A DNA stretch of 64,000 nucleotides. It comes from Cirrosporium novae-zelandiae (Eukaryota). The stretch lies in the NCBI GenBank assembly GCA_026023565.1, contig JAPETS010000013.1, positions 620,001 through 684,000 on the forward strand, read 5' to 3'. This document shows positions 13,810-52,483 of this stretch, piece by piece (the first letter of the stretch is position 1; each line of letters opens with the position of its first letter). The notes under the pieces are model-generated. The model made no database searches, had not been told where the DNA came from, and was given only the letters and a program-made list of their open reading frames with translations. A program made the translations under genes and the position numbers.

Positions 13810-15398
13810 CTATAGCTTCCAGTCCTTATTTACATAGGCGCAGGTACCCATATCCATCTCCTTTGCCGGAGCCGATGGTGAAATATCAAAGTCAAACATA
13901 TCCATCGGAAGTCCTAGAGTTGTACAGGCATTCGGAATCTACCAACATCAGTACATATTCCCACAAGGGCAAATTTAGTAAAGGACCTACATCAACAATT
14001 CCAGCAATGTGCCCTTGGACCGGTGCACAACTGAGCATGAGATATATCTGGTAATCCGAGTACCCAAATCTCTTCAGATACTCGATGCACCTGAGAATGG
14101 TTTGTCGGTAGGCCACCGTGGCATCCATGTAGTGCTGCTTGCCATGCTCATCGACACTGAAGCCCTCAAAATAAATGTACCTCCCGGGCCCGAATTGGGG
14201 TTCAACTGGCCCAGGTTGGTAGATTGGGGACTTCATGCCAAGCTGGGCCATGCCGCCCTTCATGACGGTGAATTTGAGCGTTATAATGCCAGCCATTTCA
14301 ATGGCACCGCAGAAGGAGATTTCCCCGTCGCCCTCTAGATACGATTCAGCGCTGTCATTAAGAGAATATTCGAATGACGACATAACCTACGCGAAAAATG
14401 AAGATCCCCGACACTGAATTTAGCACCCTTGACATGAACAGGGAGGTATACCTTGCTCCCCCTGCTCAAATTTTTTATATCGCAGTTACCTCCATGCTCG
14501 GGACGTCCCTTGATGGCATTAGTCTCTAAGAGGCTTGTTCGATGACTACCTAGGTACTTACAGGAATTGTCCGCGCACCTTCTTTCCCAACCCTGGTTTT
14601 AATGTCATTCGGAGCACTCCCAGCGTGGACATTAGTTTCATTTGGGGGCTGTGCCACAATGCGATCCAGGTCGGTCGTCGAGATCAGCTCGCCTTCTCTT
14701 CTGTTCCATTCCGCGAGAATCTCGGCGGAGGGTGCACATCCTAGGATACCGGGGTGGATGAGACCGGCAAAGCGGACGTGGGGGATATGGCGAGAAGAGC
14801 AGAAAATGCCCTCGAAATCCCAGATGGCCTTTGCGCTAAATATAAGATACTATATAAGCCAGTTCTTATTCTAAATCCCGTATAACAAAGGTGCTTACGC
14901 TTCAGGATAAATCTCATCCAAAAAGCCACCTCCATTGTCCCTATGGAATACCCCAGTAAAACCCCACGGCTGATCCTCAAAGGGTTGGACATCTTGAATT
15001 TCCACAAGCAAGACATCTCCAGGTTCTGCGGTCTCGATCTCAAAGGGGCCAGATAAATAATGGATCTTGGTCAGGTCGACGTTCCTCACATCGGCAGCGC
15101 TATCGTCGTTTTTGATCTGGCCGCCAGTCCAATCCAGGCATTCGATTTTGACGACTTCGCCGTTCTTTATGGTGCCATTGAAGGGGACTAACGAAATTTA
15201 TGAGCGCCAGTGGAGAGTTGGGGGCCACCAGGTCTTACTGTCGGGGTGCCATCTATTCTATGGAAATAGTCAAGCGTCAACTATATGAAAAAAAGGATAA
15301 GGAAAACAAGGTATAAAACATACATGGAGCTGCGGTTGCTCGGCAGCAGGCTTATCGAGATCCACCTTGCAGGCAGTGCGAATTCCTTTCATACCCAT
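13810..15398 (-). CDS. fmdS: Formamidase (FmdA/AmdA family), about 6 introns
   Basis: Spliced motifs LHNRWHPD, ECLDWTGGQI, HYLSGP, HGGNCDIKNL, GDLHFSQGDGEISFCGAIEM, GIVDIPNAC. Confidence 0.93.
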
Positions 15399-25142: not shown

Positions 25143-26255
25143 ATATAATGATGAAAAAAAAACCCTTCCCCCCGGAAACGTTATGGACCGATAATTTAAA
25201 CACATCAATTAGACATATCTTTGCATGGATGGGGCAAACATAGCCTCGGTGAATATGGTTGGATATCTCGGAAATTGTATGAGGCCTTTTTTTTTCTTTC
25301 ACTCTAGACCTCGTGATCGCTCTGTTCTTTTTTTTTTTGGTGTCATTTGAACGTATTCCAGGAAACTCGGGAGGTATACGGGGAATTGTTTTACCGATAG
25401 GGGAGGAGGAGGGGGATATGGATATCTAGATGTATCAAGCAAGCCACACTACACGATGGTTTATTATGCCGACCCGATCCACACTGGCGTTATTTTTTTT
25501 TGGTCTTTGTTTAAGGGTTTCATGTGTGTGTGTGTGTGTGTTAATACCCCCTTCTTTGTGATCCTAATGAATGAATTTTTTTTTAAAAAAAATATGAAAT
25601 CAGTTGTCATGGGGTTGATAGTGGATTTTTTTTGGGGGGGGAGAGGTGTTTGAGATAAGACTTATATATATCATACATATTTACGGACGCTATTATCTAT
25701 CAAAGGCACTTAGGTAGGTAGGTAGGTAGGTAGTGTACCTATTTATGGAATGGAATGAAATACAAACTTATGGTTATTTATTTCTTAGTGTCTGCTGTCC
25801 TCTCTCACTTACGTGTATGAGAATGTTATCACTTTATACAGTAGTGGTAAGATAATGATAAGCTTAGTTTCCTTCTTTCCAGGTGTTGTTTTTTTATCAT
25901 TTTAAAAGGGGCTTTTACCTACATATATCTATGCGTGGTTGATGGGATGGTATAATAGATATTGCAAAACCCGGGGGGTATATATATTTGATTTGAATGC
26001 TTTATCCTAGTATTCTTCTTGTATCCCCATCAAGGATTTCTAGCTTCATGGTGACCATTTTCGGGTGGTCACTTCCGCTGGGCTGAATCGAGATGGTTGG
26101 TTAGGCTTCGCTCGAATATAATTTGCTAATTAGAATGTTGAGGAAATAAATCATATATCGATATCAGGAGGCCTCCAGAAAGATCCTGGACTCATTTCGC
26201 GTAGCTGTGGCCAAAAGACCGGTATCGCAGAGAGAACGCAACTCTAATATGCAAT

Positions 26256-27139
26256 TTAAATAAGATGCTTCGACCTAAAGCAAAGACTGATTAGCATATC
26301 GTCTCTCTCCCGAAGTTGAATGAAATCATACCTGAAGTAAGCTCTCAAATAAACAACCTGCCAGGCACCTAATCCGACCAGCATACCCATAGTGCCAAAA
26401 GCAAACCATTTAACTCGTTCATTCGTGCTTTCATTGGTATCTCGTAACTTTTGCTCCCTACCTCGGAGGTATTCCATCTCGCCCACAATCTCGCTAACGA
26501 GTTCCTCGACCCGTCGTAGCTCAATCTCGACAGGCTTCAGCTTCTCTGCTGCTTGGATGGCTGACCAATCTCGAGCATCGGCTCCGATATCAATATCAAG
26601 CTCAACATTACGGGTAGGGTTTATGACAGAGTCTAAAGCAAATTAGCACATATTACGGCTCGGTATTGAAGATAAGGGTCGTACGCTTGGCATTCAGGAT
26701 ATTCTCAAAGCAGACATCAAATGCGGAGTCAGCAATAGAGGTAAATGCCATTCTCTTCTCTCCGACAACATCTTTTGGATTTCCGTATTCATTTCCTACG
26801 GCATCTTTGATCTAAGTTGGGACATGCATTGTCAGCTATGTCTTCCATGTAGATGATACGATCCATATCCATGAGTTTTGGAACAGCTCTTGCGACAAGG
26901 ACACGGTTACTGACGTGCATATTAACAATCTGACCATCACCCTTCGAACCGCTTATAATCGCTGTCACAACGACCAACGTGTCCCTAGCGACAAAATTCC
27001 GAATGCATCGTTCATATTGTGAGCTGTGGCCCGTATGTGCGACAAGATCGAACTTTAGAGCAAAGACGGAAGGGAGGATGGCAAGAAAGAAAAACACATT
27101 TAATAAAATCTCGACTGGTCTGAAGGTGCGTGCCATCAT
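26256..27139 (-). CDS. ERV25: p24 family ER-Golgi cargo receptor (Erv25/TMP21); 3 introns
   Basis: Signal peptide, GOLD domain ERCIRNFV...[22 protein letters not shown]-terminal YLRAYFRSKHLI. Confidence 0.93.
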
Positions 27140-27397
27140 GAAGAGAAATACGGGGTTGATAGCAGCAGAGGTGGGTTTTTGAAGATTTGAGACTGAGACA
27201 ACTTGACAAAGGCCAAAGGCCAAAGTTCAACTTGGCCGAAATTGAGTTTGGGGAAATGTTTGTCCAACCAGAGATAAGAACACCAACTACTTCCTCCCTA
27301 TTTGATTTTTACCTACAATTAAGTATACAAAATATGCAATACAGAGCTCATTCTCCCATGTTTTAATTTTCCCACGGCATTTTGATCTTCCTCCTTG

Positions 27398-28270
27398 CTA
27401 GATTTTATTATTCCTCCCAAGGAACTCGAGCATCAACCCCGCAATCTCCTTCGTTTTTGTTTCCCCGACAAAATGTCCCGCGTCCAACAAATGTATCTCT
27501 GCATCCTTCACATCTCTCTTAAAACTTTCTGCTCCTTCTGGAATAAAAAATAAATCATTCTTTCCCCATACAGCCAATACTTGAGTCTGGCTGTCCACCA
27601 ACCATTTCTGAAACTGTGGGTACATCTCCACGTTGTTTTGATAATCCTTGAACAAGTCCAACTGTACCTCGACATTCCCCGGCCTATTTAGCAATGCCCA
27701 GTCGAGAGTGTATGTTTCCGGAGGGATGGACTCGGGATCAGATTCGCCGTGAGTATATTGCCACTTGGTGGTTTCGAGAGTCAGAACGTTCTGGCGGATA
27801 GTATTACGGTCTGAGTCAAGACCAGTCTTCCAGTATTGCTGGATGGGTGCCCATGCTGGACCTAGGCCCTCGACATACGCATTTCCATTTTGGGATATAA
27901 GAGCTGTTACGGCATGGGGCCGTTCCAATGCGAGTCTCAGCCCTGTCGGAGCACCATAGTCGAATATATACATGGCAAACTTTTCGATACTAAGCTTGTC
28001 TAGAAAGGCGCCAATGGTGTGTGCAATATTCCCGAAGGTATATTTATATCCCTCTGGAACATCCGTGAAGCCAAATCCAGGGAGATCTGGGGCAACAACC
28101 CTGTAGCGATTGGTGCTAGTAAGGAGGGGAATCAAGTTCCGAAATTGATGTGAGGAGGTAGGAAACCCGTGGAGAAGAAGAATTACAGGAGCGTCGATGG
28201 GCCCTGCTGAGCGGTAGAAGATATTGCTTCCATCGTCGACGGAGATGCGGGAGATCTTGATGGTGGACAT
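27398..28270 (-). CDS. Alpha/beta hydrolase of the epoxide hydrolase/dehalogenase type (Asp nucleophile); intronless
   Basis: LLHGFPTSSH, APDLPGFG, FDYGAP, VWGKND, DAGHF. Confidence 0.9.
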   Translation of the reverse strand: MSTIKISRISVDDGSNIFYRSAGPIDAPVILLLHGFPTSSHQFRNLIPLLTSTNRYRVVAPDLPGFGFTDVPEGYKYTFGNIAHTIGAFLDKLSIEKFAMYIFDYGAPTGLRLALERPHAVTALISQNGNAYVEGLGPAWAPIQQYWKTGLDSDRNTIRQNVLTLETTKWQYTHGESDPESIPPETYTLDWALLNRPGNVEVQLDLFKDYQNNVEMYPQFQKWLVDSQTQVLAVWGKNDLFFIPEGAESFKRDVKDAEIHLLDAGHFVGETKTKEIAGLMLEFLGRNNKI

Positions 28271-28684
28271 GCTGTCTTGATGATGGTCTCTTCTAGATTT
28301 CTCAAAGTGGGAGTATGAGGGCTGAGGTTTACATTCGATGACTAGGTATTCTGGTTTACCACGACCAACGGCAGAACAGTAGCGGACAACAACTGATTTT
28401 ATAACCAGATCTCTCCTTTTTTCCCTCGGAAATGCATTTCTCTGTCAGATTATAAACCCATCTAACAATCATCACTAATCTAGTCATTTCCAACCAACGT
28501 CTGGAAATCCATACTTTGTATTACCTAATTAATTATACGAGATACCTCTTCCAAAAGGGAAGTTCCAACCTTGATGACGTTTAAGTCAACTTCAAGGCCT
28601 AATAATAAAAAATAACCAAAGAGAGGAAGAGAATTATATGAAAGTGCCTTATCACAGCCCATCGGAGAAACAAAAGAAAATTCA

Positions 28685-28847
28685 CGGTCCGCATCAGGCT
28701 TGAACTATGATTATCTATGTCATTCAAACGTCTCTGGTGAATCTTTCGTTTTAATTACCTGATGACTTTTGCATTTTCCAAATTTTTTTACTTGTACTGT
28801 ACATAGGAATATTAGTACAACACTCTAACCAACTGAGTTAACGGACC
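28685..28847 (-). tRNA. tRNA-Ile(AAT) with a canonical 35-nt intron (28775-28809) and a 54-nt GT-AG intron in the T arm (28705-28758)
   Basis: Spliced 74-mer GGTCCGT TA ACTC AGTTGGTTA GAGT G TTGTA CT AAT AA TGCAA AAGTC ATCAG TTCAAGC CTGAT GCGGACC G, in which all four stems pair. A box, B box and a downstream TTTTCTTTT terminator are present. Functional status unknown. Confidence 0.8.
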
Positions 28848-29361
28848 TGTTTGGTTGAAATTCAACGGCCGGAATGGATCCATATATTACATGTAAAAAA
28901 AAAAGGAATTTTCATCATTCGATGATTTGTCAATTGAAGTTTTAAAAATCTTTGTTGGGTGCTGGACTACTGTGGGTCCCTTCACAACCACTCCAAGTCT
29001 TTTTTTTGCCCTAAAATACTTTTTACTATTAGCATCAAAGTGAACACCTCTTGTGTATTTTATTTAAGCAATGAGAAAGGAAAGCATTCGAGGATAATTA
29101 ATCGAATATCGGTTTTCGGTTGTTGTGGTTGCCCATGACAATTAGTGTCGAATAAGTAACTGGCTGAACCCAATTTCGAGCTTCAGCTTCCATCCTTGCC
29201 CATACTCGAGTAGTATGCCAGCACACACCAACAGCCATTGAATTAATCCCCGGCCAAAGGCCATTGACGTTGACACCCGATCTTTTCTTCCTTACTTTAC
29301 ATTTATACACCCTCTTTTAATTTTTTTTACACGTCTCTCTTTTTTTTTCTCCCTGTCCGCC

Positions 29362-31897
29362 ATGACCTCTTCGCAACACTCCGCATCGCCAATGGCGACG
29401 GTGCGTGTGATTGCACGAGTGCGGCCTCTCCTACCTCATGAAAATGATCGAGATATTATCCTTCGAGCTGATACCGATACAGCCGAAATAAAGATTCCCA
29501 ACCCTAAGAATGTGAATGAGGAGTACAAGTTCAAGTTCCAGGCCGTGTTTGACGCCGAGGCTGGGCAGGGAGATCTTTTTGACGGTGAAGGTAAGATTAA
29601 AGACCGTAGAATTAATCGTTGGGCCAGTCTCTTTGTCTAATTGATTAGTTGCCGCTACAATTCCACATCTATTCAAAGGTCACGACGTTACACTCTTCGC
29701 GTACGGGGTCACTGGGACCGGTAAGACACACACAATGCGAGGCGGAAGGTCTTTAGCAGACCGCGGCATGATTCCTCGACTGCTCTCCGCCGTGTTTCGA
29801 CGCGCCAAGAAACTTGAAAAGGCTTCAGAACATACATCCAAACAGACCACCATTGAGGTTCGCATATCCTATTACGAAATATATAATGATAAGGTCTTTG
29901 ATCTCTTGGAGGCTCCTGAGAAACGAACACCTTCTGGATTGCCAATGCGAGAAGCTGGTGGAGGAAAGGTCGTTTTGGTCGGCTTGACGGAGAAAGTGTG
30001 TAGTAACGTGAAAGAGTTTGAGAGTTTATATGATAAGGGTAACGGAAACCGTTCAACGGCTGGAACAAAATTAAATGCAGTCAGCAGTCGTTCCCACGCA
30101 ATTCTATCTGTCAAGGTTATGGTGACGACAGCCGAAGAGGGTGAAGAGCCTTCCACCCGCGTCAGTACAGCTAGCGCTATTGATCTTGCGGGATCGGAAG
30201 ATAATAGGCGTACAGAGAATGTTGGGGGTAGAATGATTGAATCAGCAAGCATCAACAGGAGCTTGTTCGTGTTGGCCCAATGTGTCGAAGCTATTTCTAA
30301 GAAGCAGCATCGAATACCCTACCGAGAATCTAAAATGACGCGTATCTTATCTTTAGGCCAGAACAATGGCCTCACAGTTATGATATTGAATCTTGCACCA
30401 GTCAAGGCCTTTCACCTGGATACCCTGAGTTCTTTGAATTTTGCAAACCGGACGAAAAAGATTGAGAACCGCGATATCGAGAACGAACCACTTTTCAAGG
30501 GGCCTCCAAGGGCAGTTAAATGTACCGGTACAAGCTCAGGCGAAAGTATTGCTTCAAGGCAACCATTGAGACCGTTGGCATCCGTTGCGAATAAAGACCT
30601 GTTGGCCGACAAAAAGGACAAAGATAAGAATAAGCCAAAGAAAGAGTTTAATGTATATTTAGATCGAGGTCGAACTGCGAAGGTTGAACATACGGATGGA
30701 ATCTTAGGACAAGCAAAAAGAATGCACGAGCCTCCTAAACGATCATCCCCATTGAAGCGAAACTCGTCAACAGATCCTTTCGTTTCTTCTAGCGGTATTG
30801 CAAGGCCTACGAAAGCAATTAAAGCTACCCAATCGCATATCGGCCGCCCCGCACCAACAAGCCAATTCATCAGTAAAGAGATAATTGAATCGCTCGTTCA
30901 ACAAAAGGTTGAAGAAATCCTTGCCGCCCGCAAGGAGGAAGAACGCAATGAGAAACAATCGCAGAGCGGCCCTGAAATTAGTGAGGAGGTACAACGTCGG
31001 CTAGACGAGCTGGAGAAGAAGATATCAAAAAAGGAGGCAGATGACGATGGAAGAGCCGAAGGACTTACATATTTATTAATGGGGAAACAACATCAAATAA
31101 AAGGGGAATACAAAGATGCACTGGAGATGTATGAAATGGCTAAGAAATGGTTCCCGGAAAACAAGAAATTAGATGGGAAGATTAAAGCTATGAGGGGGAA
31201 GCTTATAGACGAAGACGAAATGGCAATGGTGTTGCTTGAGCAAGAGACGGAAGAGCCTGTGATGATAAAAATGCCATTAAAGCACCGTGATATGACTTGG
31301 CAGGGAGAGGAGCCGTCCGAGAAGGTTGAAGAAAATGGTGAACTCGAGTATGATGAGGAGGAATGTGATGATCCACCATTCCCGGAGGATATATATGAAG
31401 AAGAGGCCGGTTCGGACTATGATTCTGATGACGGATTCCGGTTCAAGTCAAAGTCGAAATCACTGAAATCCAAGCCACGGCGTAAACAAAAGGCAAACAC
31501 TAAAGTAAAGGCGGCTCCGATGATGTCAAGGCCTAAATCCCTCGTCTCGATTGGTCTTTCTGCCTCCTCATCAGCGTCTTCCTTGGATGCCATCTCCGTT
31601 CCTTCAACCACGACTAGCAATATCTCGTCGTCTTCCTCGCTTACATCCGCGCCGATCAATGAAGACTGTCCAACTCCCCGTACAATCAAACTACTTCAAA
31701 TTGTCAACTCCCGCGACGTAACGAAAATCCGCCTCCTCAGGGGTGTGGGTGCCAAGAAGGCGGAGGCAATACTGGAGGGGTTGAATGGATGTGAATGGAA
31801 GACCATTCGGAGTTTAGAGGAGTTAGAGAGTCTAAAGGGGGTCGGTGTCAGAAGTGTCGATGGAATGCGAGCAGGGCTATCGGTTGAGGAAGAATGA
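29362..31897 (+). CDS. Kinesin-10 (Kid/KIF22-like) with C-terminal helix-hairpin-helix; intron 29591-29648
   Basis: VRVIARVRP, FAYGVTGTGKTHTM, SSRSHA, IDLAGSED, IPYRESK, HhH LRGVGAKKA...LKGVG. Confidence 0.92.
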
Positions 31898-42640: not shown

Positions 42641-45600
42641 ATGTCTCTTCCCGACCCTCCCGGTGCCTCTACCTCCTCTTCTTCTGACCAGGGGTTCGAA
42701 ACGAACGCCCGCGGTAATCCTAGACGATGTCCTGCACATCTCTCGGTATCCCTTAGGCCATCACCTTCGGGTTCCAGTGCCTTAAGAGGACTTCCCCCCA
42801 ACTCTTTCTTTGCAAGAAATAACCGTACAACTCGTCATCATCGGACTTCTAAATTAGCTATTTCCCATAGCAGTCGACGGGCTCCAAGCTCACTTGGAAA
42901 GACCACCATGGACGGCTGGTTTGACGATGCGAACAGGAATGCCCAACATCCCAGAGATGTTCCTTACAATAATGGTAGGCTGATGGCTACACCATGCTTT
43001 TAACTAGCTAATGCTTTCCCAGATGATTCTCCTTTCTACATGGGACAAACGTCGGATGAAGATACCCCAGCTCAAAGTGGACCGTGCTCTCAAGATGATA
43101 GTGCAAGGGCTAGCCTCTCTCAGTTGAACCTTGGCGGTACAAGCGATGATGGCGATTTTCGTAGTGTCATTGACGACTTGACTATCGAAAACCAACGCTT
43201 GAAGAAACGGCTGAGAAAATACGAAGCTACTCGAAGGACAGACATGGAAAAAGAAAAGCTTTTCGAAGTACGTATGTCAGGACTACCGCCACACAAAAAG
43301 AGGGAGTTGGAAGAAACATTGAGGAAGTTTGCCTTGAGCTTGGACAATGTAAGCGAAGGGACGCTTGTCAATTCCGACGTACCGATGTCGGGGCAAGGAG
43401 CAGGACATGATCCAATACGTATGAAACCAGAGTCTCCAATCTCCTCGGCCTCTAATTTTCGTCCAGTTGATTCGGGATATGGGTCCGCTTCACTATTTAA
43501 CACTAGTTCTGGGGTCTCTCACGGTGGGAACCCAGCAATCATGTCGAGGGAGCGCAACGTGAAAAATTATTTAGAGGAGATCCCCGAGCACTTATTGCCG
43601 AAGCACTCTCTCGTAATGACAGAGAGAGTTAAGATGAAGCTTATCGTTAGACGATTAGAGAATATATTCACTGGCCAGAAAGCAACCAAAGGCGGTCATA
43701 GCCAACCTCTCCAGCAACAAGAAGTTTCACATTCAGCAGCATTGGCCGACAGAAATGCCATCACGGCTCGTGGTGATAGACTTCGTGCGGAGGGCAAACG
43801 AGAAGCGCGCATCATGCCATTGTACGCCCCTAGATCAACTACTCCAAGTCAAGGACACACTCCAGCAACACTTAAAAAGTCTAGAAGTTCGGGGGATTCG
43901 GCTGCATCGAGCGATAATACCACTATACCAAGTGGATCGGGCTCACCCACTCAACGACCTACTCGACCTCTGGATCTTGACCCGAATCGAGCACAAATAC
44001 CTTCGGATAATTTAGACTATATTCGACATCTTGGTCTTTCCGCACCGACTGATATCCTACATGTTCCCTCCACGGACGAAGAAGGATGGGTCTACTTAAA
44101 CCTTATTTCAAGCATGGCACAACTTCACACACTGAACGTCACCCCGGGGCTTGTACGGAAGACGGTCTCGGAGATGAGTTCAAAGCTTGAGATATCTGAA
44201 GATGGTCATAAAATTCGATGGCAAGGCGGTACTGAGGGCACCCATCTGAGTAGTGATAGTGGTAGTACTGGTGACCAAGATGTTGACAATTACCAGACTT
44301 CTAATTCCAGGCCGAGCAAGAGTCGGAGCGTCGAGAGCTCACGCAACAAGCATAGTTTTGAACTTTCAGCAACAGGGAGACAATCATCTAATGGTCCTCA
44401 AAGGTCAAAAAACCAGCCAACTTTCGATAGTGAGTCATCCGATGAGAAATTGTCTAGGGAAAATAAATTTGCCTATAAACCGCTGGTCTTTCATCGGATG
44501 GCTTCTGATGACGATGAATTCCTCAACTCTTCTGATAGTGCTGGTGGGTCTTCAGAGCTATCTAGTTATCACTTAAGATTCCCGTCAACATCAAATTTTG
44601 ATACTAGTTCTAGAGGGGTGACATCTATCTCTGGATGCAAACTAGATGATGGTCCCATTATTTTCTTTAAGAAGTCACATTTCTTTACTGATCTTAGTGG
44701 CGATCTTGAACACCACTCTATATACTACGGAGCCCGTGATACCAAACGCGACGAGCATCAAATCCTAGGACTTTCCCATAATAGGCAACTAGGTAAGAAA
44801 TCAGAAAGACATGACTACCAAAGACCCTTTTCACAATGCAGTCCTGTGATTAATTTGCAAGAAGACGACGATGAGGAAGGGAGGGGGGAAGAGGAAGAGG
44901 AAGGCCATTTTGACTTGGAGCCACTGAGATGTACATCCCCGAGTGCTGTTAGACAGCCTAAAGAATTCGAAGCATCCGGAATAGGGGGGGTATATCCGGC
45001 GGACAACTTTATGGTGAATGTTCGAGTTCACCACGCCAATGTCAAAACTCAGCGATCTTTCCCTAAAACCCCTACGTCTAGTGTAGAAAATGTACAAAAG
45101 AACCCAAAGTTGAATCACCAAGGGAAATCCTTTACTGGATACCACATGCATTCCACTCACATCATCTCCGCAGAGACGAAAGATCTTCTTCCATCTACTT
45201 TACCCCCTCCCAACTATTTCTTCATGCCCTTTACTTCCTCCGAGGACGAAGATGACGAAGATGACGAAGATGAAACTATGTATTCTGATAGTGATGACGA
45301 CACGTCTGTATATTCCCTGAAAAATCGCCAATTAGCACCTCCATCGTTCTTGAATATGTTTCGGACCGAGGATTATGACAAAGCCATCTCGATCGATGAT
45401 GATGGCGAAGACGAGGACGAAGATGAAGATGAAGAGTCCAATACCAATGATTCGGTCGACATGTCGGATCCGGTACGAACCCTCCTAGACCCAAGCAGCA
45501 TCGCAGTAGAAGAACATCAGCTTCAGTGTGACAGAGGAAGGGAATTTGCTGAAGAATTGCCGGCAGGGAGTTCGGCAGCAACAGCAGGGGGTGGTAGTGG

Positions 45601-45742
45601 ATATGTTAGCGATGCTAGAAGTTTATTGAATATGAAGGCGGCGGTAGTGGGATCGAAATCCAGTCAAAAGAGGGGAAGAAGGTCCATCAACAGTAGCGCG
45701 GGCGCTCCGAACAACAAGATAGTCAAGATGGAAGTTGATTGA
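42641..45742 (+). CDS. frq: Circadian clock protein FREQUENCY; intron 42975-43022
   Basis: PRRCPAHLSVSLR, coiled coil FRSVIDDLTIENQRLK, LIVRRLENIFTG, QRPTRPLDLDP, GWVYLNLISSMAQLH, ASGIGGVYPADNF, acidic PEST regions, SSAATAGGGSG. Confidence 0.95.
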
Positions 45743-51220: not shown

Positions 51221-52483
51221 AAACAAGAACTAAAAGAGAAGGGGTAGAGTGATACTACGTGTAGTTAGATTAGATTTGAAGAATTGGGAGGTGAGTTGAG
51301 TGAGTTGGGTGAGTTGGATGAGGGGATCTTCCTTGATTTTCGTTGACATAACCTGGTCGGGCGTAGAAGTAGAACCTTTGGTGCCTTTGCTGGTGCCTTT
51401 TAGCTTCCGAAAGGTTGACTAGTCCAACTCTTCCGTTCTCCGAACGAATCAAAAGAAAGTCTTGAAGGAAAATCTTTAGAAAATCTTTATAAAACCTCCC
51501 AATCACGTGTTTTGTCCATTAACATTAATCTTATCAAGGAATAATAATAATATCTTTTCCCAATCTTCCCACTTGCTCACGCTACACGCTCTACACACTC
51601 TACACACTCTACACGCATACACACTTACTTTTCTATTCTTTCTTTCTTTTCTTTCCCTTTCTTTTTTCCAAAAAAAAACCCACACGATAGACCCTAGAGT
51701 AACTAAACTACCCTTAAATCACCTCAACTTGGTTGCCAATATTGCTAAAACCAAAACTAGTAGACTTTTCGAACACGTCTACCATGGACGTCCTAAAATC
51801 ATGGAGTAGTTTCTCTCTGACTCTTTAACGCCTCATGGCCGCTTTAATATTCCACATGCGAATAAATTCATCGTTGGTTTCCACCGTCTTTGTGCACCAC
51901 AACTCCAGCGTCTCAAGCTTCATCATCGCTCCAAGCCCCTCCCCTTGAAGATCATTACTACCCTGAGTCCAGGTCTCAAGCCAAACAAAAAAAAAAAAAA
52001 AATATTTGAACTAAAATCCAGGCCCGTCGCCCGTTCTTTTTTGAATCTTAAAAAAGCTGGTGAAACCCTAATTGAACTCAAACAAACCAAACCTATCCCA
52101 TCGATGGCATCTCCTCCGTTCCTGTAAAAGGGATTTTTTTTTCTCTTCCCTTTTAACTCATCGGCAGTTAACCGGCGTGGGTCCATAATTCATACCACTT
52201 CACCGTATACACACCGTTCCTCTACCCTAATGTTCCCACTATCTCTCCCATCTGCTTTTGGAGACTGTGATACCTGTGACCTTGATTAGCCTCGTTTTGG
52301 TTTCCATTGCCTTATCCACAAGTCATTTCTGCAGTAATTAAATAATTAGCTAATAGTAGACGCAATTCTCTCTTTCCAATTCTATCCTTTCAAATCTGCA
52401 CAAACAATATCCTACTCCGCCCTTCTCCAATCCCCCAATATTCCCTCTCCATTCACGGGAATAGCCACAAATTGCTTTCCAAC

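Follow-up and report, generated by a model that had tools for sequence, protein, structure and literature searches.

A tRNA-Ile(AAT) locus of Cirrosporium novae-zelandiae split by two inserts, one of them with GT...AG ends in the T arm

A tRNA-Ile(AAT) locus was found at positions 28685-28847 on the minus strand of the window, which is the whole 64-kb stretch of DNA analysed. Slicing by coordinates divides it into three exons and two inserts (Table 1). Removal of both inserts is required for a cloverleaf. Insert 1 lies in the anticodon loop, and insert 2 separates the two halves of the T arm. The locus was read as a recent insertion-disabled copy of a tRNA-Ile(AAT) gene with intact exons, with a probability of about 0.5. 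Weighed together, the features of the sequence point both ways and lean, far from decisively, against insert 2 being an intron removed by the spliceosome. The host, Cirrosporium novae-zelandiae, belongs to the class Xylobotryomycetes in the Pezizomycotina.

The tRNA obtained on excision

The earlier note had described a tRNA-Ile(AAT) gene with a canonical intron at 37/38 and a further insert in the T arm. This description was supported by ARAGORN runs on edited constructs and by an excision scan. With both inserts removed ARAGORN called a tRNA-Ile(AAT) of 74 nt with a score of 110.2, this being the spliced 74-mer that had been put forward for scoring. ARAGORN found no tRNA in the intact locus and none in the construct from which insert 1 alone had been removed. 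When insert 2 alone was removed and the intron was fixed at 37/38 (-if option), ARAGORN again read Ile(AAT). Left free to place the intron, the program gave a poorer Cys(ACA) with an 18-nt intron. This model was discarded, as it requires an anticodon stem with a mismatch and leaves a long variable region unpaired.

Scanners had been expected to miss the gene, and this was the case. No tRNA was found in the unedited window by ARAGORN, with or without intron search, or by Rfam. At the locus itself Rfam returned no tRNA or other credible family at E values up to 10, and four weak matches (E 0.6-4.4) were taken as chance. In the excision scan each GT...AG segment of 40-120 nt was cut out on both strands of the window and ARAGORN was run on each construct. 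A tRNA call was obtained from one of the 33,981 constructs, which was the present locus, and this single call indicates that the split tRNA is real. The scan gave no second GT...AG-split tRNA in the 64-kb window, and neither ARAGORN nor the scan found other tRNA genes there. An A-box-like match at 43930 was considered as a further split tRNA and rejected, as it lies within coding sequence with no surrounding tRNA.

Table 1. Features of the tRNA-Ile(AAT) locus and its surroundings (window coordinates).
Feature	Position	Strand	Description
Exon 1	28810..28847	-	38 nt; acceptor 5' strand, D arm, anticodon-stem 5' strand, loop through A37
Insert 1	28775..28809	-	35 nt after position 37; canonical 37/38 site
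Exon 2	28759..28774	-	16 nt; A38, anticodon-stem 3' strand, variable loop AAGTC, T-stem 5' strand ATCAG
Insert 2	28705..28758	-	54 nt at T-arm 53/54; GTAATT...CATAG
Exon 3	28685..28704	-	20 nt; T loop TTCAAGC, T-stem 3' strand CTGAT, acceptor 3' strand GCGGACC, discriminator G
Two T4 runs	28672..28680	-	4-13 nt past the discriminator; candidate, weak Pol III terminator (putative function)
TAATATAT	28882..28889	-	35-42 nt upstream of tRNA position 1; in AT-rich spacer
Alpha/beta-hydrolase CDS	27401-28270	-	Same strand as the tRNA, which lies upstream; ATG 415 nt downstream of the tRNA
Kinesin gene	motor domain in 29645-31894	+	Other flank of the spacer

The spliced product is a cloverleaf with stems of 7, 4, 5 and 5 bp and a 7-nt anticodon loop. 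The exons are undecayed. Each of the 21 stem pairs is either standard or G-T, which bears out the earlier description of a 74-nt cloverleaf with its stems paired after excision at GT and AG. The invariant and semi-invariant bases are all there (T8, A14, G18 G19, T33, G53, T54 T55 C56, A58 and C61). The discriminator at position 73 is G and not A, a caveat already raised, and the 10-25 pair is A-T. Isoleucine tRNAs typically have A73 and G10-C25, and both G73 and A10-T25 are therefore atypical.

The promoter and terminator elements are mixed. The B box was said to be kept in the DNA, and the B-box-like GTTCAAGCC is present and whole because the last G of insert 2 completes it. In the A-box region, position 10 is an A. 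A T-rich terminator had also been proposed. Two T4 runs do occur within 13 nt after the gene, but they would make a weak Pol III terminator, with no T run after the gene longer than T4. The upstream TAATATAT is possibly a TATA-like element, or a chance match.

The spacer that contains the tRNA is 1.1 kb long and has an alpha/beta-hydrolase gene on one side and a kinesin gene on the other. A contig from run X1 showed no differences over 26200-31200 at a depth of 346, which argues against an artefact of a single assembler, although X1 probably consists of the reads from which the window was built and is not independent support. For 28450-29150 the only run listed was X1, which is a DNA run, and no RNA run was among the entries.

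The two inserts and their splice signals

Insert 1 was taken to be an ordinary endonuclease-type tRNA intron, judged on its sequence. Its length falls within the range of 6-133 nt for eukaryotic tRNA introns that is given in the available text of PMC4090602. A cut at 36/37 yields the same product as one at 37/38. The insert contains GTACAA, a perfect complement of the 5' strand of the anticodon stem plus C32. This complementarity allows it to compete with the true 3' strand, which accounts for the alternative 18-nt intron model of ARAGORN. For insert 1 the outer helix is paired at four of four positions and the central helix at two of four, so it is not an archaeal-type bulge-helix-bulge.

Insert 2 reads as the earlier note had it, with the same ends and coordinates and an exonic AG before the GT. 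The TGAC branch-like motif was also recovered, its A lying 15 nt from the end of the insert. The G+C content is 31% and no T run is longer than 3. The full exonic triplet before the insert is CAG, and the donor fits the usual consensus from -3 through +4 and again at +6. Cuts at 51/52, 52/53 and 53/54 give an identical product, because insert 2 and exon 2 both end in AG, and GT...AG ends are obtained at 53/54 only.

Sixteen mRNA introns were inferred in the window for comparison. They range in size from 47 to 89 nt with a median of 57.5 and have G+C contents of 0.30-0.49. The length and G+C content of insert 2 are inside these ranges, and its claimed match in size to the mRNA introns of the window holds. 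Several of the 16 have support from other sources, in some cases from Pfam coordinates that are contiguous over the splice junction (fungal rhodopsin, MFS, formamidase and sugar transporter). The intron in the FRQ gene is backed by a public protein model, against which tblastn leaves a gap of 16 residues, equal to 48 nt.

The individual signals of insert 2 are poorer than those of these introns. The donor GTAATT has T at +5 compared to G in all 16, and its score is -0.18 bits. CTRAY was sought 8-25 nt from the 3' AG and the best match was ATGAC. At the branch position insert 2 has A compared to C in 12 of the introns and T in three. The donor and branch had been acknowledged as non-consensus. 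The donors GTATTA and GTACTT, which had been cited in mitigation from other introns of the window, could not be tied to any supported intron.

A composite position-weight score was calculated from donor positions +3 to +6, the best branch 5-mer and acceptor position -3. Insert 2 scored 2.4 bits compared to 5.3-12.6 bits for the 16 window introns (leave-one-out). This contrast is somewhat inflated by the choice of training introns, as 10 of the 16 were picked by a consensus-based score and the remaining six were selected from 2-36 frame-compatible options. A composite of at least 2.4 bits was reached by 15% of random GT...AG segments of 45-70 nt from the window (n = 11,034). In the same segments the donor alone was equalled or beaten in 15% and the branch alone in 60%. 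That the inserts contain no T4 run was considered as a sign of Pol III read-through and set aside as uninformative, since T4 runs are also absent from 46% of 1,742 AT-rich 89-nt windows and from 81% of shuffles of the inserts.

Readings of insert 2

The reading given the most weight starts from a nuclear tRNA-Ile(AAT) gene of a filamentous ascomycete with an ordinary intron at 37/38. A 54-bp insertion, bordered by a 2-nt AG repeat, would later have interrupted the T arm. It would have parted G53 from T54, and a transcript could then not form the T loop. The copy would probably be non-functional, with insert 2 presumably retained, and other, presumed Ile(AAT) copies would provide the tRNA. The exons would still be intact because the insertion was recent. 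The GT start and the intron-like length would be coincidence.

Three observations favour such a disabled copy. The signals of insert 2 beyond GT and AG are poor. Its terminal AG equals the last two bases of exon 2, which is expected of a 2-nt target duplication or of a microhomology-mediated insertion. The atypical G73 and A10-T25 were also counted for it. A setting for this reading is provided by PMC4090602. According to the available text of that source, a eukaryotic tRNA gene with an insertion in its D or T arm is usually one among many synonymous copies and is regarded as a pseudogene. In those pseudogenes too, as far as that text describes them, a T-arm insertion blocks the cloverleaf and scanners miss the gene. 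The present insert differs from theirs in that it is 54 nt and not short, has exact GT...AG ends and interrupts undecayed exons.

Several observations count against a disabled copy. The undecayed exons are one. The B-box-like GTTCAAGCC, kept by the final G of the insert, is another. The joint occurrence by chance of exact GT...AG ends, an exonic CAG and a 54-nt, intron-like length was put at roughly 1 in 16 to 1 in 250, a figure not corrected for the number of windows scanned, and with the undecayed exons added the coincidence is an uncommon one. It also counts against a disabled copy that the 54-mer is not repeated in the 64-kb window, where no other match exceeded 14 nt, and that no source for it was found there. 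Introner-like elements of Dothideomycetes are multi-copy spliceosomal introns. Insert 2 resembles them as a short intron-like insert that was possibly gained recently, and differs from them in having no second copy in 64 kb.

Searches beyond the window were also made. Runs X2 and X3, from the same study and from distant organisms, gave no match in the spacer, and their matches were limited to short coding pieces of less than 90% likeness. A 24-nt 5' part of the tRNA had no matches in prokaryote genomes. In a metagenome scan the 21-nt 3' part of the tRNA had one exact match, at 601-621 of contig L001. This was dismissed as chance because the contig is G+C-rich and offers no tRNA context.

Insert 2 may instead be a true U2-type spliceosomal intron in a tRNA gene transcribed by Pol III, with the spliceosome joining G53 to T54. 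The 37/38 intron would be taken out by the tRNA endonuclease and ligase, and a working tRNA-Ile would result. This was judged a minority possibility, well behind the disabled copy. Such an intron could have reverse-spliced into an abundant RNA that was then reverse-transcribed and recombined, or it could have inserted directly after an AG. A working intron, with one tRNA-Ile that would need both the spliceosome at 53/54 and the tRNA splicing endonuclease at 37/38 to mature, was considered slightly less probable still. Consistent with splicing are the GT...AG ends, with the GT preceded by an exonic CAG, the TGAC whose A lies 15 nt from the 3' AG, and a size within 47-89 nt. Excision gives a flawless cloverleaf, and this outcome was unique among the trial excisions. 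The B-box-like sequence and the T-run terminator are retained, and there is no internal T4.

Precedents for a spliceosomal intron outside mRNA are given in the available parts of two sources. Introns of this type occur in U6, U2, U5 and U1 snRNA genes and in rRNA genes, and U6 is an example of splicing in a transcript made by Pol III (PMC5855946). In yeast, the spliceosome excised a 57-bp intron of lichen rDNA from transcripts of Pol I (PMC8527467). As far as these cases are described there, the U6 introns (Schizosaccharomyces and Rhodotorula; Pol III) and the ascomycete rDNA introns (Pol I) share with insert 2 a short GT...AG insert, a structural RNA gene and a fungal host. Here the host gene is a tRNA gene, the donor and branch are weak and removal of the insert is putative. 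The Pezizomycotina, to which the host belongs, are a group with reported rDNA spliceosomal introns.

Against splicing stand the composite score, below that of all 16 window introns in a contrast somewhat overstated by the training choice, together with the missing G at +5 and the A at the branch position. There is also no second example within the window. The earlier note knew of no spliceosomal intron in a tRNA, and no report of one was found in the literature covered, which lies mostly outside subscription journals.

The same GT...AG ends and intron-like length could belong to an intron of a minus-strand Pol II transcript running across the spacer, for example in a long 5' UTR of the hydrolase gene. 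The tRNA gene would then be a dead passenger of that transcript or would be released from it. The tRNA does lie upstream of the hydrolase CDS on the same strand. The weak splice signals of insert 2 count here too, and the exact restoration of the tRNA is unexplained unless the intron was gained inside the tRNA sequence. A Pol II intron was regarded as improbable.

Least probable of the named readings is removal of insert 2 by a non-spliceosomal route, either by the tRNA splicing endonuclease at a non-canonical site or by another activity. The intact exons are consistent with removal of this kind. The available text of PMC4090602 lists 53/54 as a non-canonical site in archaea and describes T-arm introns that are excised in the Guillardia nucleomorph. 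It reports no fungal cases in the part available. The non-canonical introns of archaea, nucleomorphs and Cyanidioschyzon merolae covered in that text likewise include a second intron at 53/54 beside a canonical one. They depend on a bulge-helix-bulge or are just 3-24 nt long, whereas the motif cannot be fitted to the present, fungal insert. A bulge-helix-bulge was defined as two 3-nt bulges with the cut sites and a 4-bp helix between them. At the three equivalent cuts of insert 2 the central helix has 0/4, 3/4 and 1/4 pairs, and it never occurs with both flanking helices. This lack of fit makes the tRNA endonuclease an unlikely agent for insert 2. In the predicted precursor fold (-35.0 kcal/mol, z = -2.36) the 3' junction would be buried in a helix and not lie in a bulge. 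The probability left over from the disabled copy and the three other readings falls to other causes.

Implications and neighbouring genes

Should insert 2 be spliced, spliceosomal introns can colonise tRNA genes and this would be the first one known in a tRNA. The short list of non-mRNA hosts, which holds snRNAs and rRNA, would grow. Standard scanners would undercount the tRNA genes of some fungi, and the locus would show two unrelated splicing systems at work in nature on a single small RNA. Should insert 2 not be spliced, the locus would be an ordinary tRNA copy that was disabled not long ago, and would illustrate that GT...AG ends alone are weak evidence of an intron.

A number of other genes were recorded in the window. 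The alpha/beta-hydrolase gene next to the tRNA is intronless. Its best non-self matches have 66-68% identity. Mycena (Basidiomycota) supplies most of them and Leotiomycetes a few, and some others are unnamed metagenome proteins. For an ascomycete gene such a distribution is patchy, and on these matches a transfer between fungi is possible. The FRQ (frequency clock) gene at 42641-45739 on the plus strand is interrupted once, by a 48-nt intron (42975-43022). A public protein named from a Cirrosporium novae-zelandiae MAG matches its ORF with 100% identity. After this protein the best relatives share 38-40% identity, which indicates that close relatives are scarce.

At 51480-52124 on the plus strand a single TAG divides one reading frame into ORFs of 109 and 105 codons, which may or may not form one gene. 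Frame-keeping GT...AG options were available there only with the non-consensus donors GTAACT or GTTGCC, and neither ORF had a Pfam match. The formamidase/acetamidase gene at 13895-15197 on the minus strand has three short introns of 49, 65 and 56 nt, and its Pfam positions are continuous across the exons.
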